From: a bacterium
GTDB taxonomy: Bacteria; SAR324; NAC60-12
Reading direction: 5' to 3'
NCBI GenBank assembly: GCA_965233585.1
Contig: CBDDTI010000451.1
Span: 1-20,936 of the forward strand
DNA length: 20,936 nucleotides
Below the pieces are notes generated by a model that was not told where the DNA came from, did not search any database, and saw only the letters and a list, made by a program, of their open reading frames with translations. Below, piece after piece: positions 1-20,936 of the stretch (the first letter of the stretch is position 1; each line of letters starts with the position of its first letter). Both the position numbers and the translations under genes were made by a program.

Positions 1-143
1 CTGCGCCGCTGCAGCCTTTGAGATTTTCTTTCACATGGGATGGGATCAAGATGAGATCAAGATGGGTAAACGGTAAATGAAAATTATGTAAACGGTCAAA
101 AGTTTGGACCGCAGACAGCTGTGCCTTATCGCCCTATCCTTAG

Positions 144-3100
144 GCCAGCTGCGGCTCCAGAAGCGGATGAAATGATCGTCGCCCTTGCGCTCAGATGGGC
201 CACGCTCCATGCGGTCACAGGTGGTGAGTGTGCTTTAAATTGGAGGATGGACCCAACAACTTGTCATTTGTATTGCGAAAATAGATCGGGATTCTAGGGT
301 CCCCTATGTGAGACAAATCGTACGGAGATGGTACCCAAAGAATTTGGTTGTTTTGGGGCAAAATAACCGAATTTGTGTGGTTCCCAGATCTGAAACTATC
401 CTTAACCCATACCCATACCAGCTCCCAGGTTGCCCCATGGCTGGCGCTTCTTTGATTTTGTAGAAGGTGCTTACCAACCATGCATGTCATAGGCTATAGA
501 AAATGACCATGGGGACATTGGCACAATCACTTAATGTGAGCTTACCAGCGTATAGTATCCCCCTCCTTATAATTAAAATACAAGATCCTTCAATATTTCC
601 TCCAGCCTTTGAGATTTAACATTTCAACAATATATCAACATCCATGATATCATAGTGATATCTCCTTTGTATCCCCAAACTGTTTGATCCCATCATGATG
701 CTCCAGGCCCAGTTGATCTCCATGGGCATCGGTGAGAATGCGGTGAGCATGGGCTCAGCCATGGGACTTGGGCCCTGTAAAAACTGTTTGGGGATGCACA
801 ATCTTCCTTGACATCCACTGAAGTTCACATATCATCCACGAAATCATGACTATTAAAAAGTGCAAAAGATCTATGAAATCAACATTTTTTAAAGGAATCC
901 CCGTTCCACGATTGGTCAAATGGTTCAACCCCCCAAAATTGTCCCCTCAATTTCAATGTCTTGCCAGGCCAAGCGTGCCAGCCTCGCCGTCAACAACTCG
1001 GGGGCCGAAGCAGCCTGCGCCTGGTGCCGGGGTGGGTGGTAGTGGACCCCATGCCTAAGTGTCCCAAGTGTCCCAAGAATGGTGGGGTTCATAGCAGGGT
1101 GACGTTTTGTGAGTCCCGTGCAGGTTCTTCGAACACAGTGAAGATCCAGACATCAATTTGCCGCCTGCTGCTGGACTGGCGGGCGATCGTCGGTTTTCAA
1201 ACGAGATTGATGCTGAAGTTTCCAGCGATTTTCGTCGCAGGAGCCCAACCTGCTGGTGACGCTGGGTCTGGATCTCAGCCGCAGCCAACAGTGACACCGG
1301 GGGATATCCAGAAACGCCCACAGGTTTGATCCTGAAGCAGTGTCCACGTTGTGCTCCATGGGCTTTGCAGAAGCCCATGTGCGAGCGGCCCTGAAGTCGT
1401 GCCTTGGCTGCTCTTGGACTTAGATTTGAGGCCCTCCAACAGATACATGCTATTTTGATCTATTCTGGATGGTGTGGTTTTGAGACTTGGAAAAAGTCTC
1501 CATGTTTCTTATACCGAACAAATCCATAGGAGGCATACAACCTCATAAATAACAGCTAAACAATTGTAATCATATATTATATATATATATAGAGATCTAT
1601 TTGCAAACAGAACATTCAATTCAGCGCACAAAGATGTACAAAAACAATGTTGTTTACCATGAAATGATAGGAATTGGAATCAATAAATGATCTGTCCCAA
1701 ACCTTGCCACCTGGCCCCATACCCAGGTGCATGAACAGTGTGGAGCGAGCGGCCGATTGGCCGGGGCCCCTGTGGCCAGGTGTCGCCCTGTGGGGTTCAA
1801 CGGTGTGGGGAAGTGAGTCATTCTGGTAGGGGCAACTCGTCCAAAGAAATGGCCCTTGTGCGGATTGGTGAATGATGAAGATGTGCACAGAATTTCAATT
1901 GCCGAATTTCGGCTAGATCGTAAAATTTAGTTGTCAAGTTGTGGACTGAGCATGTTTTGGCGCTTCAGGTTTTGGCTGCATGCCCAGCAAAAGCCAAATC
2001 ATATCTTCAACGCACTTCATCGCTCACATCTTCATGGCTCACATGGGAGGTTGCAGCAAAGAATCAACAGGTCCACATTTGGTTGATTCTTTTAGGTCAT
2101 TATGATTATCATGTCACCAGTTTTTGTTGGCAGCGTTCCAGCCCCAGATGGGTAGTTGAACATCATACTTGTATTTGCGACTGGGGCTTTATGTTGCCCT
2201 TTCAATGGTGCTTTGTACTGATGGGCTTGCAGTTCCATCCTACCCATGCAAAGAGCTTTGGGCATGTCCAAACCTATTGACAAGTCACCTTTAGGCTGGG
2301 TTTCCAGCGAACACCTACGGCGATGGAGATCCGGAATTCGTTGCTGATATTAGGCTGTAATTTTCAAGTCTCACATTGTTAGGCACTGCCACATACCCAA
2401 GCAATCCCCAAGGCAGGATGAACAAAACTGATATCGCCAACTGCCCGCTGTGCTCTGTGCCAACTGCCACCACGACGTCAACAACCGAAGGAACGAAGGT
2501 AGCATTGACCCATGGCCATTATCGATGGGTGTCCTACAATGACAAGCTGCGACAAGCTGCGACAATGCCAAAATATCTTTGCCATGGGACTTTTAAGGAC
2601 TTAATGCCTTCAATTGGAGTGGCACTTGCGTCGTCAAGAAGCACGCAGTCTACCTCCAGCGTGGCCAGATTGGCGGGTACCAAGAAAGACTGGTGCGATG
2701 GGTAGCCCATTGACATGGCCAACCGGCACTTCGCATCGCTCCTGCTTGTGCATTACTTGTCATTACTTCATCTTCGATAAATTATGTGTTTTGGAAGATT
2801 GTGGGTTCGATTGGTGCTAGGTATGAACAGCCATTGCTTCGTACTAGGGAAAGTTTCATTGATAATCACATTGATATTTGTAGCGGCAATCATCATCACC
2901 ACCACCACTACCAGCATCAGAATCAGCATCATCATCATCATCACCATCACCATCACCATCATCATCACCATCACCACTACCACCACCACTACCACCACCA
3001 CCATCATCCATCATCATCATCATGATCATGATCATGATCGTGGAAATCCTACAGGGACATGTCCATGAGCAACTGTTATTTGCGTGGTTGTCAGTACACC

Positions 3101-4670
3101 ATTTTGGTGTGGGTCCTTTCCCACGGCTTACCTCCCAAGGCTTTTCTCACACGCAGACGATCTGGATGCAGCCGTGGCTGCGGTGAATGGCAGTGGCACA
3201 GCGGTGGCTGGGCAAAACTCAGGGGATGACCGACTGATGACTGATTGCTGAAGGCTGGCAAGTTAAATCTTCAGAATCTACAGGGCTATATGTGGAAACC
3301 CGATCTCACCCTTGCTCCCTCGAGGGTCGGGATCTTTCCTGGCTAAACTTTAAACATACTTCCATTTTTTCACGAAGTGTGACATGAAGTTGGACATGGT
3401 TTTGCTCAAGAATTGAAGCGGACAAAACTCTCCATGGACAACGTGTCTTCCAGGGGTTGTTTCAACGCTATTTTGATCCATGGTGCAAGACAAAAAGTGG
3501 AAGTGTAGGCAACTCCTTGCCCATTCCATGAACCCCTAGAAATGTTCCCAAAAAACAACGATAAGACCAGCAAAAGATGGATTGTTTCCTGCCACCGTTG
3601 GGTTCAGTGCTCCCTGGCGCTCCAGGCCGGGCCGAGTCGAGTGGACAATGAAGATGGCGTGGGCGAGTGCCCAGCGATGATGCCTGTTGGAAGCTTCAAA
3701 CATCTTCAAACTAAAGATTGCATGAAAATGGATGAACTACTTGGCGTTTCATGGTTAGGCTGAATCTAGCATTGATTTTTTAAATGGGTTTACAGCAGCT
3801 GCCTACTGTTGATCTCAGCATTGCGAATTGGTGCAGTTTTCGAACAGAAGTGCGAGGTACGAACTCCTGGGGTTTGTGTCCCACATTGGAAAGCACACCT
3901 CTCATGGGCATTATGTTTGCCACATGCACTTCCCTCAGTCACTTGTTGTGGGACGCGGTATGTTAAATGCCTTTATGAAAGGCATCATGGCAACCCAACA
4001 GTGAAAGGTTCCAGCAAGGTTCCAGGACTGTTCCGGTTTTTCGGGGCGCCCGGCCCCAGAGACTGAAATGCAATAGATTCGCTGTTGGGAATAAGGATGG
4101 TTCAAAAAGACCGCAAGAAATAGTGATATTCATATGCCAATAATTACCCACGTTGTAGATCCCTTTGCGGCAACTGAGGCGACGGGGTGAGGGTGGCTCC
4201 TGGGTGATCTTTGATGATAGCAAGGCATGGGGTTGAGCCGCCGTCCCAAAAAATATGAATCAAAAAGTCTGCCAAGGTCGGATCTCCCGTAGCCCACAAA
4301 AGCCTAGCCTTCGATTAGCTCCCGCCAGGTGGCGAAATCCGAAGCTCCACCATTGGATTTGGGCCATCCCCTTAGAATGGAGAAAAAAAACATCCCTGAT
4401 GTGGACCTATTGAGCGGGCAAATTGTTGGCAGTTTCAACATCTTTCAAAGCTTGTTCATTTTGACTGGAAGCGATGCCAGTTTCAAGCAGTTGGCAAGCA
4501 TTTTGTTGGGAAACTATGTTCATTGGTTGGTGCTTACTACTTTGATTTGCCAGGTTATCTTTACCTCTATAGACGGAAGGACTTTTGGAGTTGCATTGCA
4601 CTTACTTGGCTTTGCTTTGAAAGTTTGGGAATTCAAAGCACAGCACCTTGAATGTTGAAAGGACGCCTGA
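144..4670 (+). CDS. UBP14: Ubiquitin carboxyl-terminal hydrolase of the USP5/USP13/UBP14 (isopeptidase T) type; 3' portion, multi-exon, 5' end outside the window
   Basis: Hand-spliced exons 144-180, 707-742, 968-1023, 1124-1173, 1241-1265 (end uncertain), 1324-1398, 1727-1759, 3140-3203 (end uncertain), 3626-3666, 3857-3925, 4179-4224, 4329-4362, 4554-4579, 4662-4670 join in frame. Translation: UBA1 (EMIVAQLISMGIGENAAKRASLAVNNSGAEAACAWFFEHSEDPDIN), UBA2 (FDPEAVSTLCSMGFAEAHVRAALKSCMNSVERAADWLFSH), His box (YELLGFVSHIGKHTSHGHYVCHM...WVIFDDSKV) and the typical C-terminus PPLDLGYLYLYRRKDA*. Two UBAs inserted before the His box are diagnostic of the USP5/UBP14 family. The last micro-exon (GA donor) is the least certain. 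Confidence 0.93.
2889..3038. repeat. (CAT/CAC)n trinucleotide microsatellite, ending in (CATGAT)n, inside the largest intron of the deubiquitinase gene
   Basis: About 150 bp of atc/acc/cac triplets seen directly. It accounts for the poly-His, poly-Thr and poly-Val/Met ORFs. Confidence 0.95.
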
Positions 4671-4942
4671 GCCTGAGCCAGAGACTAAACCTGAAAAATA
4701 TTTCCAAAAGCAAAAATTATAATTAATATAATGATTTTTTGATAAATATTAGAAGAAAAAACTAAACGACGGATGACCTGAGAGCGTACAGGAGCAAGGT
4801 ACTTAAATCTAAATATAAACAAAAACATTATAGATATAAGAAAAGGCAATGATAACGATGGAAAATGAAATATTTATTATTATCTTTGTGAAAGAGGCAA
4901 GATGTTATTAAAATGAAAGCTGAAGTACGAAGATAAATATTC

Positions 4943-5077
4943 GAAGGAATTTTAGAAAACAAACTTTTACAATATGGGCAGATGAAAAAGCAAAGATGGG
5001 AAGAATTAGAGAAGAGACAGAAATAAGATTAAAAAGAGAAAGTCTCAGAAAAAAAGATCTAGGTGCGCGAAAAGGTA
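4943..5077 (+). repeat. 5' fragment of a purine-rich interspersed repeat (…gaaggaattttagaa…gatggg aagaattagagaagag…aggtgcgcgaaaaggta), apparently interrupted at a TA
   Basis: GA-rich degenerate sequence. From memory it resembles an abundant Symbiodiniaceae interspersed repeat whose continuation appears at 8559-8642. Not verified by a search. Confidence 0.5.
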
Positions 5078-5619
5078 CTGGGTAGTAGACCTTACTCGTC
5101 TTATTTTACGAGAAGTCGTTTCGCAATCGTCGTGCCTATGGGAAGTGCTGTTAGATACCTCATTCTAGATTCGTTATATGTTTTGGGGTATGTTGAATTT
5201 TTGATGCAAATCGTAATGGTACGATGCTTTGGACTGGGATTAGGATTTATTTAGGGAATTTTTATTCCTATAGGTCGTTTATATAGATAGTTTACTATTA
5301 TTAGACAAAAAGATTGCTAAATATAAAAATAATTTAAATCCTTTTAATGACATAAAAAGGAATGCCTTATATAGATGTATGATAGGACGTATCCCGAAGG
5401 TTTTTATTTTATCCTGAAGATTAAAATTCGTATCGTAATACCTTATATCCGCCGGAAATTTTATTATATACTCTTTTTTATTGAAGGCTTGAGGTTAATG
5501 ATTTAAATGTTACTTATATGATGGTTTTGAATAGGAAGTATATTGTTTTTTTTAAATAATGTTTATCGGGAGAGAAACTTCTGTTTTGCGGGGATTTAAT
5601 AGAATAAAGTATAGAAAAG

Positions 5620-5730
5620 GGTAGATTAGAGTAGGGAGGAGTAGAGTAAAGAAGAATAGAATAAAGTGGAGGTGAGTAGAAAAAATAAAATAAAGAAGAT
5701 TAGGGTAAAATAGAGAATTTATAGGAAAGG
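5620..5730 (+). repeat. Degenerate (GAGTA/GAATA)n pentanucleotide simple repeat
   Basis: gtagattaga gtagggagga gtagagtaaa gaagaataga ataaag… seen directly. Confidence 0.6.
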
Positions 5731-5963
5731 AAAGTATATGAGTAGAAATTTATAGGTTTTGTTTTGTTTTTTGGATATGTTATTTTAAATTTTATTATTT
5801 AATAAAAATATAAATTTGGATTAATTATATTTTTTATAATAATTTAATTTTTTATTTATTATAAATTTAATATATTATATTTAGAATAATTCGGAATTTA
5901 TAGTATAATATTATTTAAAATTATTAGTTAATTATTATATTTTTTAATAAATATAGAAAAATG

Positions 5964-6756
5964 TTAAATTCGAGGTATTTGAGCTTATATTCGTGGTATT
6001 TGAGGCTGAAGATTTATGAATACTTAATATACCCGGTTACCGTTATTATAAATAATTAGACTAAAATATATTAAAGTAATAATATATTAAAGAGGTTGAA
6101 AAGATTTAAATACAAAATAATAATAGGAATTTTATTTTAAAAAAAAAAAAATTGAAAAACTTATTTTGCTAGGATTAAATTTGGATTTATGCGGGTTAAT
6201 TCTTTTTAAATATTTTTTAATAAGATAAATAAGGATAGTGTATTATTAAATGTACATATAAGTTATCTATATATACTTCCCGAAGACCAACCTTATTATT
6301 GTTAGTAACTCTAAATATTTGATGGCCTGTTGGGGGGCATGGTATTTGCCGGTTGCACCCGCCAGGTTTTGGATATTCTTAAGAGGACTTGTGGAAAAAG
6401 CAAGATAATGATTGGGTTCCGTGTAGATTACACCATGATGGGGTTTATTTACGAATTCCGTACAAGTAGCATGTACCGTGGTGGTGGGTGACTGGCTTGG
6501 TATTTTTGTTCAGTATTTGGCTTCTGAAGGTATAGAATTATATTTCTGTTAAATCAAAGGTAAATGTAACCAATGCTAGCTATCTGTGGGACCCTTAAAA
6601 TCGGAGCACATATAAGATACCTTGCCTGAAGATCTATGGACATATTCCCAAAAAATCGATGTATTTGCTTGGTTTTTCTTCCTCAAAAAGGTGTTGGCCA
6701 TGTGAGAAGTAACATAAGATATCAATAAATATTTGTAATTTTCCCAAAATACCGGT
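5964..6756 (+). repeat. Left arm of a ~0.8 kb long inverted repeat (pairs with 7461-8308)
   Basis: Aligns as reverse complement to 7461-8308 throughout, e.g. 6588 gggacccttaaaatcggagcaca vs 7606 tgtgctccgattttaagggtccc, and 6351 ggttgcacccgccaggttttggatattcttaagaggacttg vs the 7888-7928 region. Confidence 0.95.
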
Positions 6757-7467
6757 GGACATTTGGGATTCGAACTTCCCAAAAAAAAAACATGCACATG
6801 TTGGGAACTTCCTTAGAAAATCGATGCACGTATTGGGAACTTCCCCAAAACAAAATAGCGGCGCGCATGTTGAGAACTCCATCAGAAAATCTATGCAAAT
6901 ATTCGGAACTTCCCAGCAAAATGGATGCGCATGTTGTGAACTTCTGCCAGAAATTGATAGACACGTTGGTAACCCCCTCTATATATCGATGGACATCTAG
7001 TTGGCAATTTTCGTTCAAAAATGATGAACACGTAAGGAGTTTCCCCGGAAAATCGGTTTCCACATGTTGGGAACTTCCCCAAAAATAGCGGCGCACATAT
7101 TGGGAACTTCCGCGGAAAATCGATGCACATGTGGAACTTTCCGCGGAAAATCGATGCACATGTTGCGAACTTCCACCAAAAAATCAATGCACATTTCGGA
7201 ACGGCACCAAAAAATCAATGCACATTCTGGAACTTCCCAGAGAAGTCGATGCACCGGACGGGCTCGGGTGCATTGATTTTTGGGATTGACGCTGACCTGG
7301 TCCGAGGCGGAGTCTTTTCGCTATTTTTCGGTTTAAACCTATCTTGTGCATTGATTTTGGTTCACCACCCCTTAAACAAAATCAATGAATGCACCGGACG
7401 GCGGGGGGTGCATTGAAAACCATTGATTTTGAGAGGGGGGTGTTATTTTTATAATGGTGAACCGGTA
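6030..7467. mobile_element. Putative non-autonomous TIR DNA element (~1.44 kb), TA-flanked, with an internal tandem array
   Basis: The left end tacccggttaccgttattataaataa (6030) resembles the reverse complement of the right end ttatttttataatggtgaaccggta (7443-7467; rc taccggttcaccattataaaaataa). Both ends terminate in TA. No transposase ORF inside. Confidence 0.5.
6757..7255 (+). repeat. Tandem minisatellite, ~30-36 bp unit (aaaatcgatgcacatgttgggaacttccc-like), roughly 13-15 degenerate copies
   Basis: The cores gatgcaca..tgggaacttcc recur at about 6792, 6823, 6893, 6924, 7063, 7094, 7122, 7153, 7187 and 7218. Confidence 0.9.
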
Positions 7468-8308
7468 TTTTGGGGAAGTTCCAATGTTTATTGATATCTT
7501 TTGCTACTTCTCATATGGCCAACGCCTTTTTGAGGAAGAAAAACCCAGCAAGTACATCGATTTTTTGGGAATATGTCCATGGATCTTCAGGCAAGGTATC
7601 TTACATGTGCTCCGATTTTAAGGGTCCCACAGGTAGCTAGCATTGATTGTATTTACCTTTGATTTAACAAAAATATAATTCTATACCTTCAGAAGCCAAA
7701 TACTGAACAAAAATGCCAAGCCAGTCACCCACCACCACGGTACATGCTGCTTGTGCGGAATTCGTAGATGAACCCGTCATGGTGCAGTCAGTCTTTACGG
7801 AACCCAATCATGTAAGTAGATTTTTTGTTGAAAATTGGCAGGTACATCCTTATTTTTTTTTCAATTGATGTTATCTTGTTATTTCGACAAGTCCTCTTAA
7901 GAATATCCAAAACCTGGCGGGTGCAACCGGCAAGTGCCATGCCCCCCCACACCTAGGCCATCAAACACTTGGAGTTGCTGACAGTAGTGAGGTTGGTCTT
8001 CGGGGGATGGCTTGTATGCACTTGGTTTGATAATATACGGTTCTTATTTATCTTATTTAAAAGGAATTAACCCGCATGGATTCAAACCTGATCCTGACAA
8101 GGTAAATTCTTCCAATATTTTTTTTAAAATAAAATCCCTATTATTACCTTGGTGTTTGAACCTTTTCAACCTCTTTGGTGGACTATTGTTTTAGTCTATT
8201 TTAGTCCAATTACTTATAACACCGATAACCGGATGGAAGGTCGATATCAGAAACGGCAAATGTTCAGCCTCAAATACCACGAATATGGTTTCAGATACCT
8301 CGAATTTA
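7461..8308 (-). repeat. Right arm of the long inverted repeat; carries a ~60 bp segment (about 7811-7870) absent from the left arm
   Basis: Reverse-complement match to 5964-6756. Both arms end internally at ACCGGT (6751-6756 and 7461-7466). Confidence 0.95.
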
Positions 8309-8767
8309 AAATAAAAATAATTTACTAATTTTAAAGGATTTATTTTTTTATTTATATTAATTTTAATAATATTTTTTTTATATAATATAAAAATATAAAA
8401 ATTAAAATAATCGATATTATAATATTTAATTAATTTTTTATATATATTATGTAATATAATAATTTCTTAATATTGGGTAATTTTTGAATTTTATTTTATA
8501 TTATATGTTTTAATAAAATAATTTTATATTAAAAGAAATATAAAAAATTATCTATTTATAGGAAAATTCCGAAAAAAGGATTTTCTTCAATCTATGGCTC
8601 TAGAGGGTCGAAAATTACGATTGTTAAAGGTGGATGCGGAATTATTATTATATATAATAATATAAAATATATTTTTTAATTAAAAATATTAAAAAATAAA
8701 AAATATTTTTAGAAATGAAAATTTAATTTTAAATTAAAATTATTAATAATTATTTTATTTTGAGTAA

Positions 8768-9645
8768 TTCCCAATATAATATTTGTTATTTTCTTACCCG
8801 TATTTTTTTTGATATATGTATTTTTTTAAATTTTTACCAATTTATGAGGTATATTTTTTGGCATTCGATCTGGTATTTTTTTATATATTTGACAAATATT
8901 TCGAATTTATGTTGGAATATTTATAATGTTCCACTTGATATCTCAATACTTATTTTAGGTGGTATACCTCCATATATTTAATTTAACATAATTTCTAATT
9001 TTTTATTTAAAATTTGATTTTCTGACATCCTATTTAATATATTTTTTGATATTTTGTCTGGCATATTTTCTGGTATTCTATTTAAGATGGTTTCTGACAT
9101 TTTATTTGGTATCGCTTCTGACATTCTACCTGGTATATTTTTGGCACATATTCTGACATATTTTTTGCTATTTTATTTAATATCTATTTGTCGTATTTTT
9201 GGCATATCATTTGATATATTTCCTGAAATTTATTTGACAAATATTTTGATATTTTATAGAAAATATTTTGAAATATTTTATTTGATATTTTTTATGGCAT
9301 ACGATTTGGAATCTCTTCTGGCATTCTATCTGGCATATCCTCTATTTTTTTTGGTATATCATGAGACAAATTTTCTCGGATTTTATCTCGTATATTTTTC
9401 CGTGTTCTTTCTGATATTCTATTTTGGTATATTTTCTGGAATTCTATTGAGGTCCAGTTGTTCGCATTGACTTGGGGAGGTCTTAGGGTGTGGTCCAGTA
9501 GTGCGTATTCAGCTTCGAAGTAGGCAGGGATGGTAAAAAAGAAGAACACGGACCAGGAGGAGGAGGGAAAAAGAAAAGGAGGACACGGGGGAGGAGGAGC
9601 ACATCTCTGATAAAATTTAATAACCCTCAGCCGGCAGGCAAGGAA
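8768..9645 (+). mobile_element. Interspersed repeat element with an internal 12-bp-period minisatellite (tctggcat/tctgacat units), a gaggtccag motif region and a GGA-rich tail
   Basis: ctgacat/ctggcat units recur at about 9020-9445, followed by gaggtccag, ggtccagtagtgcg, (gga)n and ataaaatttaataaccctcagccggcaggcaaggaa. The element starts ttccc and ends aggaa (possible very short terminal inversion). The minisatellite is seen directly; assignment to a common Symbiodiniaceae repeat family is from recollection only. Confidence 0.65.
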
Positions 9646-9989
9646 TTGAGCATTTTAGTTTTTTTGCAATGGCGATATCGAAAAAGGGTATGTTATTGTT
9701 TTGTCTCGAAAGTAATAATGGAAAATTTTGCTGGATTTTAGAGTATGGTTGGAATAAGACATTTTTTAAAAAATTATCCAGTAACATTTCAAAAAAATGT
9801 AGATATTCTTTTGCTATATGTCAGATTTCTTTTAAAATTTGTAATTTCGATAAATGAAAAAATTTCGTAGAAAATTTACAGAAGCAAGTAAACAATACCT
9901 TTGTGACAACCTTGACATACCAAACCACACCGCTTTCATTAATTATACCACAATTTCCCACAACGACGAGTATGCCAAATTTTTTCCCC

Positions 9990-11990
9990 ATGCTACATCC
10001 TGAATTTTCCCTTATCCAAAAAACCGCGGGAGTGGTGGCTGGCGCTTTGTCTCCACCTCCTTGGGAACCCTTCTAGCAATTCAAAAAAGCATCCTGTGTC
10101 CCAATTGGAGTAAAATTCAAACGCTGTGTCAGTGAAGTTGAAACAAAAGCCTGTAAAATCGGAAAAATAATTTATTTTGTTATTTCCATGGAAAGTTATT
10201 GTTTTTTGTGGAGTCGGTTGCGGTCGCAAGAAATGGCTCTGTCAGTTTATTCCCACTCGTTTTTGAATATTTTAAAATGCTTGAAAAAGGATCCTTTTGG
10301 AACAAACCCTCAACTAAAACAAATAAAAATCAAAAATTTTGCAATGCAGCTAATTGGCAGAAATGGTAATGGAATTCCTAGGTGACATTAGAAGAAATTG
10401 ATAAGACAGACGCAAAATATTATTGAACCACCAGAGACAGAAAAGACATACAGAAAAATATTTCAGACACCAACACAAAAGAAAACACAAGCACAACACG
10501 AAGCCACAAATGTTACCCACAAGCTTATTTGATTACATGACGTGGTGACTTTTATTCAGCTGCTTTTTAGCCAGCACTTTTTTTCGGTGCCCAGAAACAA
10601 CATTTCTCGCTTATTTTGTGGTGAACATTCTTTTTTTCTTTTCCGTTGAATACGCATCGTCCCCTGGCTTCGCTGGTTCAATGTTTTCAAGACGCGCTTC
10701 CATCCTCGGTATGCCTACCCGTCTGGAAACCAAAAAACGTTTTCCTAAAGGAATTGGACGGAAAACATCTTAGTTTCAAACCCAGCAAAACCGAAGACCC
10801 GAAACACGGCAATGATTTCTGACTAGGAACGATTTTTTTCGATTCATCAGAAATAATTATATTTTAGTCGACGCTGAAAAAGCCGCAATGCGGCATTTGC
10901 AGCAAACAAGAAAAACAAATGTCGTGTTTTCTTGTGCGTAGATATTACTCTGCATGAACTAGAGGAAGTGAATGATCGAAAGATTTTCTTTGCAGTTGTA
11001 ATCGTGGTGCGAGCACACACTGTGGTGTAATTTATTGACTTTAGACCAAAAAAAGCAAAGTAGTTTGTTGTAGTGTGCCCGACTAATTTTTGTTGCATTG
11101 AGGTCTTGCAAGTGTGGGTTTAGATATTTTTGGTCACGACAAAAACAGTGTCCATGTGAGCAATTTGTTTAAAGGCAACACGGAGTCAGTCACAAACCAA
11201 AAGTCAACGCAAGGAAAAAAATGAATTCGTAGTAAAAAAAATTAAATTCCTGAAGGAGATCTTTATTTTTTTTTCTCTTGCCATTTTCGAAGTTATTGGA
11301 TTGTGAAAATATAAATTAAAGAATTGGAACCACACTGCAAACATAACTGCGACTTCAACTTCACCACAGGAATTACACAACATTTTACAACCACAACCTA
11401 CAACAAGGACCCCTCTACAACGTTATCAGTAGCAGTGCAGGAGTCTTTTCAACAGGAAACCTCGTGGAAACGTTGGCTTTCTTGCACTTGTGAATGGCAA
11501 CGCGGATTCAATTTTTGTCTGCAAGAAGAGTGGTTTTTTGACCAAAAATTCTTCAAATATGTTTATTTTCTCTTGACATCACTTCAGGGTGTTCATGGAT
11601 TACCATCAGGCCTTTCATTTTGCCATTGAACATTTGTACATAGATTGGTTTTTCCATTTATAAAAGGTCGATCGACATTTTTTTTCAGGCAACGTGCAAA
11701 AAGGGTATATCCCTTTTTTTCTTCTGGATTCCTGCTCTAATCAACACCACAGGAATGGTTGCCACAGGAAATGGTCTGCAGCAGAAAGTCTTTGCTGAAA
11801 CTTGCTGTATCATTGACCAACAATGTCAAAAATAGTTTCCATGGTACAGTACCAAAAAGCAAAGGAAATTCTGAGGCCGCAACCGATTGATGTGACATTC
11901 TGTGATACGCAAATGTTTTCAACTTGGCAGGGAAACTTGAATCTTCCACATGGTTGAAGTGCATATTGGAATGAATTATTATCAATAAAA
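9990..11990 (-). pseudogene. Degenerate coding relic, possibly a Mutator-like (MULE) DDE transposase, broken by stops and frameshifts
   Basis: A higher-complexity island inside AT-rich DNA with minus-strand protein-like fragments: GYTLFARCLKK…LMVIHEH (possible Zn-binding N-terminal part), QKLVGHTTTNYFAFFGL…RTTI…RSFTSS…FFLFAANAAL, and FYSNWDTGCFFELLEGFP…QSASHH. The order is compatible with a MULE, but catalytic residues cannot be identified with certainty. Confidence 0.35.
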
Positions 11991-12849
11991 TTTTTTGAAA
12001 AAAAATTCGACTTTCGGTGCGACAATTGTCAGACGTCCAAAATTCCTGGATGTGTGTCCGGTGCAGCTAGGTGGCCTGATTAGTTAGTTACTGGGAAAGA
12101 ATGGGCAAATCAAAATACGCATGGAAATCTGGGCAATTCATTTGGGCAATTTCAAACCACACCCATCAGGCCAATACAAACAGTGTTTGTTTCCAAACAG
12201 AGCTGAAAAAAATTAGCTCGTTGCTGAAAAGGCTTGTGTGTCAACCAAATGCCATAGAAAGATTCGTATCCAAGAGCTTCGCTGTCTCAACGGCGAATGA
12301 AACATGATTCAACGCATTTCTGTGAATAATCGACGCAGGCGAATCCAAAAACTTAACCGAGGCGAATCATTCGTACAAAATGAACGATTTTTCATTCTTT
12401 AATCCATTGTACGTAGTTGATTGGGAGCAAGCTTTTCCGTATCCAGGAGGCACAGCGATACACATCCAGTAAGGATGAAATTTCAATCCCTGACCCCTAA
12501 TGCCTGGAAAAAAAGAAAGTCCTTGTGCGCGACTTTATAAAGAATCAATATGTGCACCTTGGCAACTAGCCCGCTGCAATGTCTGTGTTTCATGTGCAAA
12601 GATTTGGAACAAAGTCAGAAAAGGGCCCAATTCAGAATATCATCTCCGGCAGGACATTTTACGTATTGAGAGTCTGCATGCTTTTTTTCACATGAAGAAA
12701 CCTGAAGCAAACCTTGTTCCTTCCCATCAGTTGCGACAAGATTTCCAATGTAAATTTCTTTTTAAATGGAAGGTAACAAGAAATTTGATCTGCGATTCGA
12801 ACGTATATATGTATGGGTTAAATTGATGGAAATATTTGTCAAGACATGG

Positions 12850-14330
12850 AAGATATCTAATTCTTCTTTAAAAAAAATAAATTTCCTATTTTTTTCTATA
12901 AATAAGGAACATTTGGAATTTATATAATTCAAGAATCATAAAACGACAATTTTTTTTTTTTGAAAAAGTAGAGGAATAAATATAATTTAAATATATATAT
13001 AAAACAAAAATTTATAAATAAATATTTTTTTTCAAATATAAATATTTAATATTATATTTTCAAAATACCAGGGCAAGATTTTCCAATCCCAATAATTTTG
13101 AAATAATTAGATATACCTCTATAAATATCGAATATATCGATAAAAAAATAATCAATTAAATAAATTTCAGAAAATTATTTTATTTTAAAATAATTCCAAT
13201 AAGGGTAAGTAAAATTTATATGCCGGAAAATTTCATAATATTTTTTTTAATTCAATAATTAAAAAATACATTATAATTAGGTTATATTTATAAAGTATTA
13301 TTTCGGTATATATATATATTTTTTAATATATTTTTTATTTAAAATTAAAATCAAAATAAAATATATAATAAATAATAAATAACATTTAATTTTTTTTAAA
13401 ACAATTATTTTTAATAATTAATATAAAATTATTTTTATTTAATTTTTATATTAAAATTATTTATTAATTTAATAAATTTTAATATATTATACGAAATAAT
13501 ACCTCGGTTAAGGACAAATTATATTTTATAATTTAAATCCATATATTTAATAATATATAATTTTTTTCTTTATAATTAAAAAATACATATATTATTTTGG
13601 AAAATAAATACCTTTATTCGACGTCAAAAAAAAGAAAATCCATTATAATTATTCCCAATATATTATAATTCCTATTCAAATAATTAGAAAAAAAGTAAAA
13701 TTAATAACCACAATCAAAAAAAAATCAAATAGTAAATATCATATTTACGAAAATTATTTCCTATAAATATAAAATTTCAAAAATTAATATATTTCGAAAA
13801 ATTAATAGCAAAAATTCGACCCAATAACATACAAGAAAAATGTTATTTAAAAGCAAGGATCAACCCCAAATACTTTAAAATAATTATTTTACTAATAAAA
13901 TAAACATTAACAAGCAAAAAACGGGCATTATTTCCAATTAACGATATTTCCATAACGATACTTCGGGTTACCTTAGAACCTTCGGGTAATCTTAAGGCCT
14001 TAAAGTCTCCTTTAATAAATTTTAGGATTATATAAATAGGATCTTAAATCGATTTACCGAGTTCTAAAAAAAAATCAAATTTATAATATAAAAATATTTT
14101 TTAATATTAAAAATATTATTTTATGTAATTCTAGGATAGTAATTTCAGCTAGGTTTCCATCCTTCCCTTTACTTCGTAAAATAAAATCAAAGTAGTAGTC
14201 CATCAGGAGCTATTTTTTTATAATATAATAAAAAACGAATTAAATAAATAAAAAAAAAAAATAAAAAAAATCATAAAAAACTAAAATATACGAAGAAAAA
14301 CTAGGATAAAGAAGTAAAAATAACTAAAAA
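12850..14330. other. Extremely AT-rich degenerate tract (eroded repeat DNA) with residual CpG-containing words
   Basis: Long A/T runs. CG words (tcga, acga, ttcgg, ccgg) survive while CA/TG are scarce. No ORF of 60 aa or more in the track. Confidence 0.85.
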
Positions 14331-14344
14331 ATTAAAAGGAACCT

Positions 14345-14525
14345 AAATAAACTGAGACAAGCAAAGATGAACAACCGAGAAGAGTTAAGAAGAGCTAAGA
14401 TAAGTTAAGAAAATGAGCTGAGGAAAAGATGACTTAAGTAAGATGAGCTGCTGCGATAAGCTAAGCAGGGGTCAAATAAGCTCTGAAGAATTAAGAAGCT
14501 GTGAGAAGAGCTGAGCTGAGCTGGT
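14345..14525 (+). repeat. Degenerate gagaagagct/gatgagctga 10-bp-period repeat
   Basis: gaga agagttaaga agagctaaga taagttaaga aaatgagctg… gagaagag ctgagctgag ctgg seen directly. Confidence 0.75.
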
Positions 14526-14627
14526 TAAGGTCCTATAGAAAGAGCACAATCCTTTCTGATATTCCTTTTAGAGAGAGCAATCCTTTCTGATATGTTATTT
14601 TTTGATGATTCATTAACTTTAATTTAA

Positions 14628-17600
14628 TTATAAACCAGTATCTTCGGCCTTTGCGCAAGTTGATTTGTCACATTCAAGTTGCCAAACCGAAATACAATTT
14701 CATGCAAGCCAATGCAAAGGTTACCATCCACATCAGCATGGGGCACTGCAGCGATCTGAAGCTGATGGCAAGCATAAATGAGCAACATCTAGGCTCCTGA
14801 CCGCTTCGCCCAACCTTTCACTAATCCACACCAATAAGCACATGTTTAAAAGCAAACAGAGACACGTGAGATTGACGCGTTGAACGGACAATTTCTATGC
14901 GGCCAAATCAAGAAGCGCTCTTGCTGAATCGCCAAGAACGATGTGAAAACCACGAGAAGAAACACTCCTCACATCTCCTCACTGGAAGAGTGACATGCGG
15001 TGACATGTGCCCTTGCCTTTGCAGAGCCGCATCGCGGTCCAAGCCGTCTAACAAGGCAGGAAGTAGAACTGCAGACACCTGGCGCTTCCAAACAAATTAA
15101 GCACCTGAAACGTGACACTCTGCAACACCATGTTCAATCTGTGCAAATTGGCAAACTGAAGTGGAAAAATAGCAAGCTTTCAACAAGAAACTTTCAAAAC
15201 GTTGAAACCATTACCCACTGAGCATCGCACGTAGAGCGCTACACCAATGCCTGTGATCAATGGAAGAGTGGCCTGGCGAATCTGCAGGAAGCTGTGAATC
15301 CTTCGAGGCTAGGAATGCCACGGTGCACGGTGCCCACGGTTCCCCATGGCCTCGTAACTGGCGCCGCCCGCCAGCTCCACGGCCAGGACGACTGAGGTGA
15401 TGGGCACCTGAGCCGATGCCCTGTTGGTCACAAATTGGACTTTTGATGAAACGTGTTTAGGATTGTTTAATATTGTTTAGTATTGTTTAGTATTGTTTAA
15501 TATTGTTTAATATTGTTTAGTTGTTTTGGTTGAGAAATTGATATGTGTTTAATTGATGTTTTCAATTCTGTCTAGTCATGGTTTGTATCAAGTGCTTTCT
15601 TCAGTGTAAAATGCGAAAATCCGTCGTTTAGTGAGGCCGAAAGCAACTCAGTCGCCCGCACTACAGTTCGCAGCCAGCATAGATGCCATGCCAACAACAA
15701 TATAAGTTGTGGCTGCCTGTGAAAGCTGTGCCCCAGACCACAGGACCATCATGGACCATCCAAAACGTCGAGGATTTCATTCTCCAATCACAATGCAGGA
15801 GTTTTTAACAGATGGGCTGCGAGGCAATCCGCTTTCGCCAAGTTGCCGAGTGGGCGATGGCAGCCCCCTGAAGTCGACAGCTCGCGACTCACCAAGGCTC
15901 AACGTCCCCAACTTGCATGTGGCCACATGTCAGGACAGTGCCCCAAAACAGTTTCCTTTTGTCAGGTGAGCCCTGCTTTATTTCACTGAACTTTTATGCA
16001 AGAATTTCCACTTTGGAACAAGATGAACAAGACTTCAACATCGCCAATTCGTTGCCTCTATCATGCGACCCAGCGCGCCACCAAGGCAGGCTCCGATGTA
16101 AATGGACGGAGCGAAGGTTCCTGTCATCGATCCAATCTCTTCTGTTTACTGTCGGATTCTCTGGCAGCCAAGTTCGGCTGGTGGACATGCGGCTGGTGAG
16201 CTGGCTTGAGTGGAAATGAATCAATGGAAACGAATTAGCCTGCCTCCAACTAGACCACTGACTGAAGAGAAGGCAGTGGAAAAAATCTTGAGCACCTTGA
16301 GTGACTGGAAACCAGATGGATAACACATAATAAAACATGATAAAACTACAATGCTGAACCCGATTGGGAGCCCAAGCCATTAGGGCCAGCAGCGGCGCTG
16401 CACCGAAGAGGCCAATGGAGCCACGGTTCTGGCGGTGCAGCACCAGAGCACCAAATCTGCAAATAAAATCACAAAAATTCTCATGTTTCTCATCCAATCC
16501 TGCAGCTTGACGAACTCACCGATTCTTCCGGCCATGGGCCATTGGCCATCTTACTTCACCTTGTTCCTTTGTACTTCCCTAATCACTTCCATTCTTATCC
16601 TGCCTCGATCAACGGTGCTAGCGACAGGTTGGATGCTGCTTCACCCAATGGCTCAGAGGCATCGCGCAGCACCTCATTCACTGCCTTGGCGATGCAACGT
16701 CTTAAGGGTCAGGAAAGACCTAGAGACACGTGGGAAACACACGGGCTTGAGCTGCAAAAAAAATCATTATTCAATTTCATGGAAAATGAACCTTTTGCCA
16801 AACATCTTCTTATCCATTTCCAGGGTCAATCTGCTTGTATTGGACATGTTCCTCAATTAGGTGCCATGAAACTGGAGGTTTCGCTTAGGAGATCTGATCA
16901 TCTTCATCATCTTCTAATCAACACCTGCTGTTTTAGGGTCAACAACTTGCCTTGGCTCCCAAACGCCGAAGCCATCGAACTGGACACGGGCGCGCGTGAG
17001 CAAAGAGATGAGGACCGTCACGAGCGCACCTGCCTCAGTGCAGGTGACACACGGTGATTGATCCGACCGATCCAAGTGATCCAACCTGCTTTGCATTGTG
17101 AGGTTGTACCAGGTTGACTCTTTGATGTCCTCATACAGCAAAAACATAACACGTTTTTTTTCCAGAAATCACACTTGGACATGAGAAAAGGGCAAAAAGC
17201 CGCACTTTCCAAACACTTCAAATGCTGCTGTCACCTGGGAAATCTGGGCTCCGCACGATGGGTAGCCAAATGTTAGGTACTCCTTGATCTGTCACCCAGG
17301 TGATGATATCGCGGCTTGAAGCCACGATCTTCTTGTAGCCATAGGCAATCATTCCTGGCTGGTGGTATCAGAGCTTTACTGTTTGAACAAATATGGCAGA
17401 TACCAAAAAATTGCAGTTGCCGAACGTTGTAATCTTATTTGAGGTGGGAAGCAGCGTTTTGGAAGACGTTTCGAGCTGCGGAAGTTCTTACAACTGAACT
17501 TCAAGCCTGTGAGGACACCCAAAACGATGAAGAAGAACAACTCCTTCCGAGGTTAACACAGAAACTACAGCCGTAGCCACAAAATCAAAGGTGTGAAGGG

Positions 17601-18410
17601 AGCTCGCGCAAGCTGTGCAAACATCTCAAGCTGGACAGTGACTAGCGTATAGCGTGACTAGTCCAAATGTTGCCTCACCTGAGGGCCCAGCGCCGTTCCC
17701 TCCGTCCCAGGAGAAGTTCGTGGTTTTGATGGCGGGGCCGCCCTTAGTCAAAATGGGACTTGGGCCATGTGGCCATGTGGCCATGCTGTTTTATGTTGAC
17801 TCCATGGCCTCTGGGTACCGCGCCGGTAGAAAGGATTGAACCACAGCAGCGCTCACTGCTGCTGCAAGCAGCCTGGACAGTTTATGAAACAAGCGTCATC
17901 AAGTGTCATGGTGGACAACCAAACTGCGTGGGTATGGTGATTTCGAGACAAAGCTGGGCAGAATGCTGCACCCTTATTGCCCATGATATCCATGGGGCTG
18001 GAAAACACCATTCAACTCCCATTGCTCCCGTTGCTTCATTTTCTCACCTTGTTGTGAGATCCAGGGAGTTGTCGTCACCTGGTCTAACGACCTGCACAGC
18101 GGTTGGACCTCACCAAGCTTTGCACTTACTCTCAGTGAGCCGATTACGATCCAATCTGCAGCAAGCCTATCATTTTTATATATTTTTGTTCATTTTTGAG
18201 GGCAACTCAACGAAATAGGGTCATTTGCCTGCTGGTGCCTTGCCTCTGAAGCAAAGAAAATACCCGCAATGGGTGCATTGAAACCTCAAACCGCCCAGGT
18301 CAACGACATCGGAGCTGCGGGAAATGCTATGCGAAATTCTCAGCTTCACACCTGCTGCAACGCCGGCAGCAGCGCCAGAGGCCAGAAGAGCATCTGGATT
18401 TTGATTTATC
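14628..18410 (-). CDS. CLC-family chloride channel/transporter, prokaryote-like (plant CLC-e/CLC-f type), helices G to Q; no CBS domains; helices A-F not found in the window
   Basis: Hand-spliced exons 18410-18352, 18284-18244, 18091-18048, 17872-17824, 17742-17692, 17543-17507, 17354-17257, 17033-16965, 16684-16604, 16428-16378, 16295-16244, 16120-16056, 15867-15847, 15716-15660, 15407-15351, 15272-15231, 15078-15017, 14814-14787, 14648-14628 join in frame. Motifs: LLASGAAAGVAAGFNAPIAGIFFASEVV, ELFFFIVLGVLTG, LKIFSTAFSSVSGLVGGTFAPSIYIGACLG, YIVVGMASMLAANCSVPITSVVLAVELAG, ATLPLI. The last two exons, 15867-15847 and the start of 16428-16378 are less certain. Confidence 0.9.
15454..15520 (+). 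repeat. 10-bp tandem repeat (tattgtttag/tattgtttaa) x ~7 in a CLC intron
   Basis: Seen directly. Confidence 0.9.
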
Positions 18411-19304
18411 CTCCGCCCCACAACTGTCTGCGATGAAGTCATGCAATGAAAGGAAGATGTTTGAACTGATTGAATAGCTCAAATAGCAGCTAACATTTAT
18501 ACTGGTTAGATATTTCCAACTGGAGTGCTTTTAAGGTGAAATAGAGCCGCGAATGTCAGGCAAAAACACAATGGTCACGCAGCGAGCACACTGGAGAAAT
18601 CAACGGAGACTTTCTCATCAATGAAATTATGAACTGTGAATGATGTAAATCAACAATTGATAATGATAATGAAACAAAACATAATCAACCATAATGCAAA
18701 CTGCATGTTTCAACAAAGGAAATGCGTAAAATAAACTGAACAAATAGACATCAATCATCAATTGCCAAAACAGCAAACTATACAACACCTTCAGAAAAAA
18801 ACACTGAACAGTAGGAAAACAGACAAGACACACCGAAAAATGCGGTGGAAGCAAATAGTTCGGACATCTAGGCAGTTTTTTTCTTGAGACATTTTGGCCT
18901 AAACCGCGAGAAGAAAAGGACAACTGCGGATTTTTTTGAAACGAAAGGAAAACACGAACACCGAGGACATAGTTACTTAGGTGTGCAAATCAGCAAACCC
19001 AATTCTCACGCGACAACTGTGACAAACAATCCAAATACCATGAATATTGCAATGCCGTTTTTCATCTTGGCATCATGCCCAGACCCACGAAAGCATCACA
19101 CTAGCAATGTCCGGCCAATAAAGAATTCAAACAATCCCCAGAACTTTTTGTTTCACTTATTTTCTTCACATCCTCATTTTCACCCTTTCTCCCCTATTTC
19201 CCGAGGTGTCTTTTTGAGTTTTTTTTAGCTGCGCCCCAAAAAAATGGGGAAAATCCGCCATTTTTTCGGAGACGGGAAAACCCCCACAGAACTGAGCTCT
19301 TCAC

Positions 19305-20785
19305 CTCGCCATGGATCCTTCGGATCGTCCACCGCAAGCCTCGAAGGAACACCGATCCACGCTGAGCAACACCGCGTCGGTGCGTGCCTGCGACATCAAC
19401 AGAAACCAAAAAAAACTTGGGATTTCGAAATTTGACTTTTTTGATCTTTAGCCAAAAGGGCAATTTAACCATCAAACATAGGAATTGTTCCAGTGCAGGT
19501 TATGTCAAAATGGGCGATAATGTATCAATTCATTGGCAACATGATGAAAAACCATTGGATCTTGAAGTGACCTATTTTCAAACAAACCCACATCTGGAAT
19601 GGAATGACTACCAACAAGGGAGAAGCATTGGGGTGCAGTTCCAGTTCTAAGTTGTTTATAGAACCATAGTTGTAGGGGTTAGACAATTATCTCCCATCTT
19701 ATGTCTGTTAGAATCCCATAGTGATAGCCATTTGCTTCACCCCCCACTTTTCTGACCTCGCTTTTCTTGCGAAATCCTGCAGGGATTCCTGGGATTCCTA
19801 TTTTCAACACTCAAAAAACCCATGGGACAACGGGATCGCCTTCACCGTGGCAGCTCGTGGTGCCCTGAACAGCACGGCCAACTCACCCACCACTTGACCA
19901 CTCTCCTCATAGGCGAAGACCTGCCATGGCAGCCATGGCACATCATGGCACCAAAAAAGGGAGTACCTTTATGGACCCAACGGTTTGGATTTCAGTCTTT
20001 AGATGTATTTCGTATCATCTTTGTATCTAAATTATTATCAAACATAATCTTTTTGGGATAAAAATTGTCTAAATGATTAAAGATCCATGTTTTTTTGCGG
20101 CAAATCTTGAGCCATTCCCAACTCAGAGCTGGGCGGATTCATCCAAGCCTTTTTCTCTTGGCCGCCATCTGGGACATAGACATCCAGCTCCCCAGTTTTC
20201 CTGTGGCACAATTTTTCCGGATTTCTGCTGCTTTTGACCATGTGATCTGAAATGGTTGCATCTCTAGTTTGATGATGTTTGATGTTTGATGTTTCTTTTA
20301 CATGTAAAATAAACATCCTGTTTGATGGAAATGATGTCTGAGTCACCAGGGTCACCCAACGCCATCCCGAGACGCCGGGGTTTTCTATGTCCAAGGCTCG
20401 TGACGAAGAGGCCTGGCTCATCATCTGCCACCTCGGCCGCGGCACCACATGGCATGTGCTGTACCACTAATGGCCTCGATAAATGCCCTGGCTCTTGAGA
20501 CTAATGATGAAGCATGATAAAGCTAATCAAGCTAATTATCACTGCTTTGACAGGTCACCGGTTGACATATGTTGACATCTTTATATGGGAAGTTGGAATT
20601 CAGTGAATTCAGCATGGAGGTGCATCTCCAGGAGTATATAACCAAGTAAGCTGCAAGGATCGAAATGACAACGATCCGTGGTCCAGAACCACCACATCAC
20701 CACAGCAATGAGTTGAATCTGCTCCACTTGTGGCACCCGCCTGATCTCCATGTTTCATCAAATTGTCGCCTGCCTTGATCCGAAC
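19305..20785 (-). CDS. Cyclic nucleotide-binding domain (CNBD, PKA-R/PKG-like) exons; gene start outside the window, 3' continuation unresolved
   Basis: Exons 20785-20741, 20431-20400, 20200-20149, 19920-19840 and 19387-19340 (or to 19305) splice in frame to VRIKAGDNLMKHGDQ VADDEPGLFVTKTGELDVYVPDGGQEKK VFAYEESGQVVGELAVLFRAPRAATVK ARTDAVLLSVDRCSFE. This has an intact phosphate-binding cassette (GELA…PRAATV). A further exon near 20890-20936 is possible. Confidence 0.88.
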
Positions 20786-20936
20786 CTACCACTGCGGCAC
20801 ACCGGCAAAATCTTGTTTTTTTTTGCACTGTAAAAGCGACACTTTTTCTGCTTGGCTTCATAATGCTTCTAACCCGAAAGAATATGAACCATGGCCCCCA
20901 TGGCGGAGTATCTTTGTATCATCCCTGAGGACAAAT

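Follow-up and report, generated by a model that had tools for sequence, protein, structure and literature searches.

CpG-sparing C-to-T change in one arm of a foldback-like inverted-repeat element, between putative convergent genes of a Symbiodiniaceae-like dinoflagellate

We have examined a 20,936-nucleotide stretch of DNA (contig CBDDTI010000451.1; hereafter, the window) and found that, in the left arm of a ~2.35-kb inverted-repeat element within it, about one fifth of the cytosines have gone to thymine while nearly every CpG is intact. This directional, CpG-sparing excess of C>T change is very probably real, and we tentatively attribute it to deamination at a boundary between convergent genes. 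The element is multi-copy and non-autonomous with inverted arms of ~800 bp, i.e., a foldback-like long-inverted-repeat transposon, and is composed of the following parts:

5961..6763, + strand: left arm, the hypermutated copy (arm alignment), with the strongest change at 6061-6360
6764..7452, no strand: element centre, unique, 45% G+C, with a ~32-nt tandem array and short GC hairpins (Tandem Repeats Finder)
7453..8312, minus strand: right arm, little changed (arm alignment)

The two arms are 87% identical over 776 aligned columns, and the right arm carries a 60-bp insertion (7812-7871) relative to the left arm. Among the 100 mismatches, 79 are transitions and 21 are transversions, and the A/T state of a transition is found in the left arm at 64 sites and in the right arm at 15 (binomial p=2e-8). 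The initial annotation of this DNA had described the bias from a 49-bp alignment and had claimed that the differences elsewhere in the arms were also mostly transitions. The 49-bp example is exact (left 6280-6328, aligned with 7955-8003 in reverse complement); namely, at all eight differences the left arm has T/A where the right arm has C/G, five of them being in CpA and three in CpT context, and both arms retain the single CpG. The full-arm alignment, which was the check proposed there, indeed has both the transition excess and the bias of CpA and CpT over CpG. When C/G was taken as ancestral at every transition site, the left-arm loss was 31/102 at CpA, 19/73 at CpT, 12/89 at CpC and 1/32 at CpG, and the loss at CpG was hence far below that at the non-CpG cytosines taken together (62/264; Fisher p=0.005). 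In the outer 367 bp of the arm (5961-6327), 44 of the 104 non-CpG cytosines (42%) were changed, as opposed to none of the 12 in CpG (p=0.0014 under equal rates), and the preference for non-CpG cytosines claimed in the annotation was thus confirmed. Viewed from the other side, the right arm has 21 CpG dinucleotides, of which the left arm keeps 15, with two opposite gaps, three transversions and one TG, while all the 15 CpG dinucleotides of the left arm are also present in the right arm. The changes follow no clear rule in the 5′ neighbour (A 22/75, C 13/85, G 12/60, T 12/66). An ultraviolet signature was also considered and is ruled out, as there is no preference for dipyrimidines. The change is uneven along the arm, furthermore; per 100-bp bin, 24-52% of the C/G sites are changed over 5961-6360 and 7-16% over 6361-6763, and the outer and inner parts of the arm differ clearly in this respect (47/144 vs 17/163, p=2e-6).

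The pattern is the opposite of ordinary decay of 5-methylcytosine (5mC), as had been claimed in the annotation. Such decay, in which CpG goes to TpG, is also C>T deamination and is visible in the flanks of the window, where the CpG observed/expected ratio of 0.57-0.67 and the TpA/ApT ratio of 0.47 are the usual marks of a CpG-methylating genome. Because the flanks show this usual CpG deficit while the left arm hardly loses CpG, ordinary 5mC decay cannot explain the left-arm pattern.

Two arms alone give no direction of change, and the changes were therefore polarised at the codon level with three independent copies of the arm, all of which are unnamed predicted proteins: P0012 for the outer arm, P0013 for the middle and P0014 for the inner arm. 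These outgroups were taken from a protein database, in which only open-frame copies can appear and heavily mutated copies elsewhere are invisible. With the three outgroups together, 39 of the 47 informative sites with A/T in the left arm were C/G>T/A changes derived in the left arm, and the direction proposed in the annotation was supported. By stretch, the sites were as follows:

Outer stretch, outgroup P0012: 26 informative A/T-in-left sites, 25 left-derived
Middle stretch, outgroup P0013: 12 informative A/T-in-left sites, 6 left-derived
Inner stretch, outgroup P0014: 9 informative A/T-in-left sites, 8 left-derived

The 39 left-derived sites were in CpA (19), CpT (10), CpC (8) and CpG (1) context with one ambiguous, and they divide between the strands as 29 (+) and 10 (minus). 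When changes of all types were counted in the outer stretch against P0012, 39 were left-derived and four were right-derived, and the left arm's own other changes there were six reverse transitions and eight transversions. Editing of a hairpin RNA from A to G, which was also considered, is ruled out, since the outgroups show that the left-arm changes are C>T. Also, we compared the left arm with its closest relative, P0013. The private amino-acid changes were eight in the left arm and none in P0013 (p=0.008), and all eight correspond to C>T on the + strand; this relative-rate result is clean evidence for a burst of mutation in the left arm of this copy.

The change in the left arm is biased, furthermore, to the genomic + strand; 47 of the 142 C but 17 of the 165 G were changed (p=1e-6), which amounts to ~3:1 per site. 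Both strands were thus acted on, as the annotation had it, but not evenly. In the right arm, too, the private changes of C>T type (three, in the outer stretch against P0012) all lie on the + strand.

The element lies in an AT-rich island, the surroundings of which are given below together with the tract and the fragment that are discussed later:

70..4597, + strand: 3′ part of a putative USP5/UBP14-like ubiquitin hydrolase gene (Pfam UCH and tblastn), with the coding end near 4600-4660
4660..14500, no strand: AT-rich island between both genes, ~10 kb (composition profiles)
5601..5800, + strand: tract of 200 nt containing 50 G but no C (C/(C+T)=0.00 vs G/(G+A)=0.36, p=2e-10)
9863..10103, + strand: fragment akin to the interior of a different copy in the element family (match to P0014 residues 25-96)
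16038..18285, minus strand: voltage-gated chloride channel family, matched by two collinear stretches of exon size (Pfam Voltage_CLC)

The host of the window DNA is a Symbiodiniaceae-like dinoflagellate, in agreement with the annotation, as judged from its coding sequences. When 117 stop-free frames (at least 62 aa) were scanned with Pfam, the single real match was a ubiquitin-hydrolase (UCH) exon at 3813-4001 on the + strand (E=2.6e-5), and the best database relatives of this exon, with the identity of at most 92% over the exon, were from Effrenium voratum, a symbB model and Symbiodinium sp. CCMP2592, all of which belong to Symbiodiniaceae. A tblastn search with Symbiodiniaceae proteins furthermore located a collinear series of ~11 short + strand exons, beginning at 70-183 and ending at 4532-4597. 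The UBP14-like exons stop at 4597, and the gene therefore appears to end right at the start of the island. Between the ubiquitin-hydrolase exons, there is a CAT/CAC-rich microsatellite (2889-3048), which would be His-rich or Asp/Gly-rich depending on the frame. On the other side of the island, the two Voltage_CLC matches are at 16038-16145 (profile 260-286, E=4.8e-5) and at 18193-18285 (profile 103-120, E=0.013), both on the minus strand; the scores are under the curated cut-off, as expected with single exons, and provide moderate evidence for a minus-strand chloride-channel gene converging on the island. With the + strand UBP14-like gene on the left and the minus-strand chloride-channel exons on the right, therefore, the island would sit between convergent genes. 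A match to delta carbonic anhydrase at 19366-19647 on the + strand (E=0.0077 among the 117 frames) was set aside as probably due to chance, its strand being opposite to that of the chloride-channel exons, and an Rfam search of the window matched no family. A short way into the right flank (15444-15523), there is a 10-nt tandem repeat, TGTTTAGTAT-like, in ~8 units.

In terms of base composition, the flanks (1-4600 and 14600-20936) are 46-48% G+C and the island is 10-39% G+C, with three AT-rich patches (4660-5960, 8313-9450 and 12830-14400) of 17-27% and a middle part of 39%. Relative to the flanks, the dinucleotide density in the AT-rich parts is 0.36-0.62 for CpG, 0.11-0.29 for GpC, 0.33-0.47 for CpC and 0.26-0.41 for CpA. 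The survival of CG words across the island, which the annotation had noted, therefore holds relative to GpC, CpC and CpA but not in absolute terms; in other words, CpG in the island is spared only in a relative sense, provided that the island once resembled the flanks, which is our assumption. For the comparison of the two strands, we used C/(C+T) and G/(G+A), because transitions cannot alter the purine content; a plain reading of GC skew was in part rejected, as the skew at 4660-5000 is largely purine richness, which transitions cannot create. The values were as follows:

Left flank 1-4600: C/(C+T) 0.47, G/(G+A) 0.48
Patch 4660-5960: C/(C+T) 0.19, G/(G+A) 0.32
Left arm: C/(C+T) 0.26, G/(G+A) 0.36
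Patch 8313-9450: C/(C+T) 0.14, G/(G+A) 0.24
Middle 9451-12829: C/(C+T) 0.39, G/(G+A) 0.38
Patch 12830-14400: C/(C+T) 0.21, G/(G+A) 0.14 (p=9.5e-5; 17% G+C, minus strand more cytosine-depleted)
Right flank 14600-20936: C/(C+T) 0.49, G/(G+A) 0.44

The more cytosine-depleted strand thus flips between the left and the right side of the island. The tract at 5601-5800, which is purine-rich, is the extreme of the cytosine loss from the + strand. As a separate observation, such a purine-rich tract would favour RNA:DNA hybrids if the left gene is transcribed through it. Also, the body of the minus-strand gene (14600-20936) has a small asymmetry (p=1e-5 for the values above), which runs the way that C>T on the coding strand would make it; no such asymmetry is seen in the left gene.

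We favour a mechanism in which unmethylated, non-CpG cytosines are deaminated locally, in a zone of convergent transcription termination or boundary, and we hold it tentatively, at somewhat below even probability. The substrate would be unmethylated cytosines in transiently single-stranded DNA, and the cytosines in CpG, which are presumed here from relatives to be methylated by family default, would be non-substrates and hence survive, much as in a naturally occurring bisulfite treatment. Exposure would affect the non-template strand of the transcription that leaves each gene into the shared termination zone or, alternatively, the equivalent strand at a replication terminus. Non-template exposure from both convergent genes would be expected to give the flip in the strand bias and also the heavier loss in the arm nearer to the upstream gene, and mutation at the convergent boundary would then have left the deep local drop in G+C as its footprint, which would not be specific to the repeat. 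As candidate agents, an uncharacterised deaminase or a methyltransferase acting at non-CpG sites may be considered.

This favoured mechanism resembles several known systems in part. The clustered and strand-biased C>T change is like AID/APOBEC editing of single-stranded DNA and fits exposed single strands. For AID/APOBEC, methylated cytosine is a poorer substrate and the characteristic 5′ preference is TC, CC or WRC, whereas no such preference is found here and the rule lies in the 3′ base. To our knowledge, a GC-skewed asymmetry with terminator R-loops has not been shown in dinoflagellates. Past the gene end in the window, the non-template strand is G-rich and C-poor, and this flips between the convergent genes, as in the transcription-associated asymmetry and terminator R-loops of human genes (PMC3787257), which are far milder and do not spare CpG. 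The position between convergent genes and the local G+C minimum are also like the boundaries of convergent gene arrays (dinoTADs) in Symbiodinium microadriaticum, where G+C falls at convergent sites only; the reduction there, however, is ~10% in the passages available from that study (PMC8110479), and the dip here is far deeper, reaching 10-27% G+C. In the searched passages of the same paper, skew, deamination and AT-rich DNA had no occurrence each. At boundaries in Breviolum minutum, 5-hydroxymethyluracil is enriched and accessibility is reduced (passages of PMC11071213). As for methylation, passages of a Symbiodiniaceae study (de Mendoza 2018, PMC5890265) give CpG methylation of ~70% with unmethylated CpGs at <0.1%, i.e., CpG is methylated by default, as the annotation had assumed, and non-CpG methylation of ~1%, which is enriched on transposons and positionally conserved; its authors also speculated that methylation may shield Symbiodinium retrotransposon DNA from APOBEC-like editing.

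A number of points weigh against the favoured mechanism. In the middle stretch, 6 of the 12 informative A/T-in-left sites are common to the left arm and P0013, and part of the difference between the arms therefore predates this copy or arose in parallel. Similarly, in the flagged 49 bp, four of the eight differences are informative against P0013, of which one is private to the left arm and three are shared with P0013. The comparison of the arms therefore exaggerates the change at this locus. P0012 and P0014 may be right-type arms, furthermore, in which case the "left-derived" changes in the outer and inner stretches include ones older than the insertion. The change peaks 100-400 bp inside the left arm and not at the arm edge, and the right arm adjoins 17%-G+C DNA and yet is barely changed, so that exposure would have to be patchy and without a smooth gradient. 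In terms of strands, a run test for strand coordination was weak (21 runs, p=0.08), both strands and not one alone are depleted in the island, and the upstream gene body has no strand asymmetry (0.47/0.48). The minus-strand chloride-channel gene is known from just two sub-threshold single-exon Pfam matches, and the whole reading rests on one locus. If single-stranded DNA were deaminated spontaneously, 5mC would be affected too, and an enzyme must therefore be assumed; we know of no such deaminating enzyme. Indeed, dinoflagellate AID/APOBEC-like sequences were judged to be host contamination in a study that also noted an expanded DYW deaminase family (PMC5889660).

Among the other explanations, it is unlikely in our view that no special process is involved, with the left arm being older or of another subfamily, mutation in the island being AT-biased and CpG being kept by efficient T:G mismatch repair. 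The insertion site is certainly very AT-rich on both sides, and the left arm and P0013 share, against the right arm, the lack of the 60-bp insertion and 10 common substitutions; the arms were therefore possibly non-identical at insertion. Nonetheless, the left arm and P0013 are sister copies of the same age and yet have eight and no private changes, respectively, those of the left arm being of one type and on one strand. Moreover, the flanks do lose CpG (observed/expected 0.57-0.67), which argues that CpG repair is not generally that efficient, and the change is patchy within one arm (24-52% vs 7-16% of the C/G sites). An artefact of assembly, polishing or base-calling in modified, AT-rich DNA is highly improbable. 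Dinoflagellate DNA is rich in 5-hydroxymethyluracil, which is enriched at gene-array boundaries (passages of PMC11071213), but this base is read as T, and C calls would not be altered by it. The differences are also clean transitions with a context rule and not indels, and P0013, which is independent, matches the left-arm translation at 70 of 78 residues, including six T/A states of the left arm.

A true homology-dependent defence like repeat-induced point mutation (RIP), in which, as in ascomycete fungi, the cell would recognise duplications and deaminate the cytosines in them, seems quite unlikely to us in spite of evident likenesses. The element is multi-copy and the arm that is hit, ~800 bp long, is duplicated; the changes in this transposon DNA are for the most part C>T/G>A transitions, which turn it AT-rich; and CpA is the most-hit context with CpC and CpG under-hit. 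Judged by the usual thresholds, the outer left arm passes both RIP indices (TpA/ApT 1.09; (CpA+TpG)/(ApC+GpT) 0.73), as do the patches 4660-5960 and 12830-14400, whereas 8313-9450 does not. Fungal RIP depends on the RID/DIM-2 methyltransferase and acts before meiosis; in linked duplications both copies are mutated, and in Neurospora the preference for CpA is strong. Here, in contrast, the arms are equally repeated and yet only one is hit (64 changes on the left vs 15 on the right), the host is a dinoflagellate, and CpT is hit nearly as often as CpA (per-site rates of 0.26 and 0.30), followed by CpC, with CpG being the least-hit context. This profile is not the strong CpA bias of Neurospora, even though the indices pass in the outer left arm. 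A repeat-induced origin, which the term "RIP-like" in the annotation had implied, is unsupported, given that one of two equal arms is hit and that the strand bias goes with the genomic strand and is shared by the non-repeated flank. The three other sampled copies are not hypermutated either, although the protein database shows only open-frame copies. Arms of 800 bp with a linker of 690 bp do resemble the repeat-linker-repeat constructs of Neurospora RIP assays, whereas RIP-like signatures are apparently restricted to ascomycetes, both according to passages of a kingdom-wide fungal survey (PMC12543289), and DNMT4 of the RID type was not found outside diatoms in a marine transcriptome (MMETSP) set (PMC9998398). 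We likewise consider improbable a methyltransferase-linked decay of transposons, in which a non-CpG methylation system deaminates its targets or unrepaired non-CpG 5mC decays to T. The changes are at non-CpG sites of a transposon arm, and the non-CpG methylation of Symbiodiniaceae, while low, is enriched on transposons and conserved in position, as described above. This alternative leaves unexplained, however, the one spared arm, the strand bias and the same bias in the non-transposon flank; methylated CpG, furthermore, should decay as well but stays.

As for the element itself, no Pfam domain is encoded in its scanned stop-free frames. The outermost 41 nt of the arms (5964-6004 and 8269-8309) are a 21-nt direct duplication, TTAAATTCGAGGTATTTGAGC-like, which may be a transposase-binding end. 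The insertion site is nearly pure A/T on both sides, and any target-site duplication is indistinguishable from chance. In the centre, the ~32-nt tandem array has ~14 units at 6772-7254, and its units have no C>T excess against their consensus (13 C>T/G>A vs 27 T>C/A>G); the array cannot polarise changes. Two short GC-rich hairpins with a shared stem, TGCACCGGACGG...GGGTGCA, lie on either side of the element's midpoint (7250-7420). Among the other copies of the family, P0012 is 98% identical to the right arm at 8131-8292 (53/54 aa), P0013 is built like the left arm, and P0014 matches 9863-10103 with its residues 25-96 and the arms with its residues 104-204. The N-terminal part of P0014 thus indicates that the element family is represented in the island by a further fragment, the internal region of which is different. 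When the window was compared with itself, no other genuine repeat was seen to span AT-rich and normal DNA, and a transition-tolerant alignment across the island found no additional arm copy. To the right of the element, a degenerate 24/48-nt tandem repeat (8830-9450) has a very T-rich strand (AT skew -0.37 at 9001-9500), and its three frames give repetitive peptides of the kind SDILSGI, LAFYLA and FWHSIW. Repeats like these peptides occur in dinoflagellate gene models.

A wider reading, which is doubtful but worth stating, is that the G+C dips at dinoflagellate convergent gene-array boundaries, rather than being signals written into the genome, are footprints of methylation-sensitive deamination on the strand exposed by terminating transcription, supercoiling or replication termination. 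It would go with this reading, and is similarly doubtful, that the deaminase or non-CpG methyltransferase also inactivates transposons landing at boundaries. Such a signature was not described in the open-access papers searched on RIP, APOBEC, hypermutation, GC skew and R-loops in dinoflagellates, in line with the annotation, which was aware of no such system. The chromosome study of S. microadriaticum suggested, in the passages available, that the domain architecture might be encoded in the sequence (PMC8110479); if the dip is a deamination footprint, cause and effect would be reversed, and the biology of the boundary would write the sequence. The footprint question can be tested directly with existing assemblies, methylomes and Hi-C maps. 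If true, there would be a cytosine-deaminating activity in a lineage where none has been characterised, and substance would be given to the idea, put forward speculatively in passages of PMC5890265, that DNA is shielded from editing by CpG methylation as the default.

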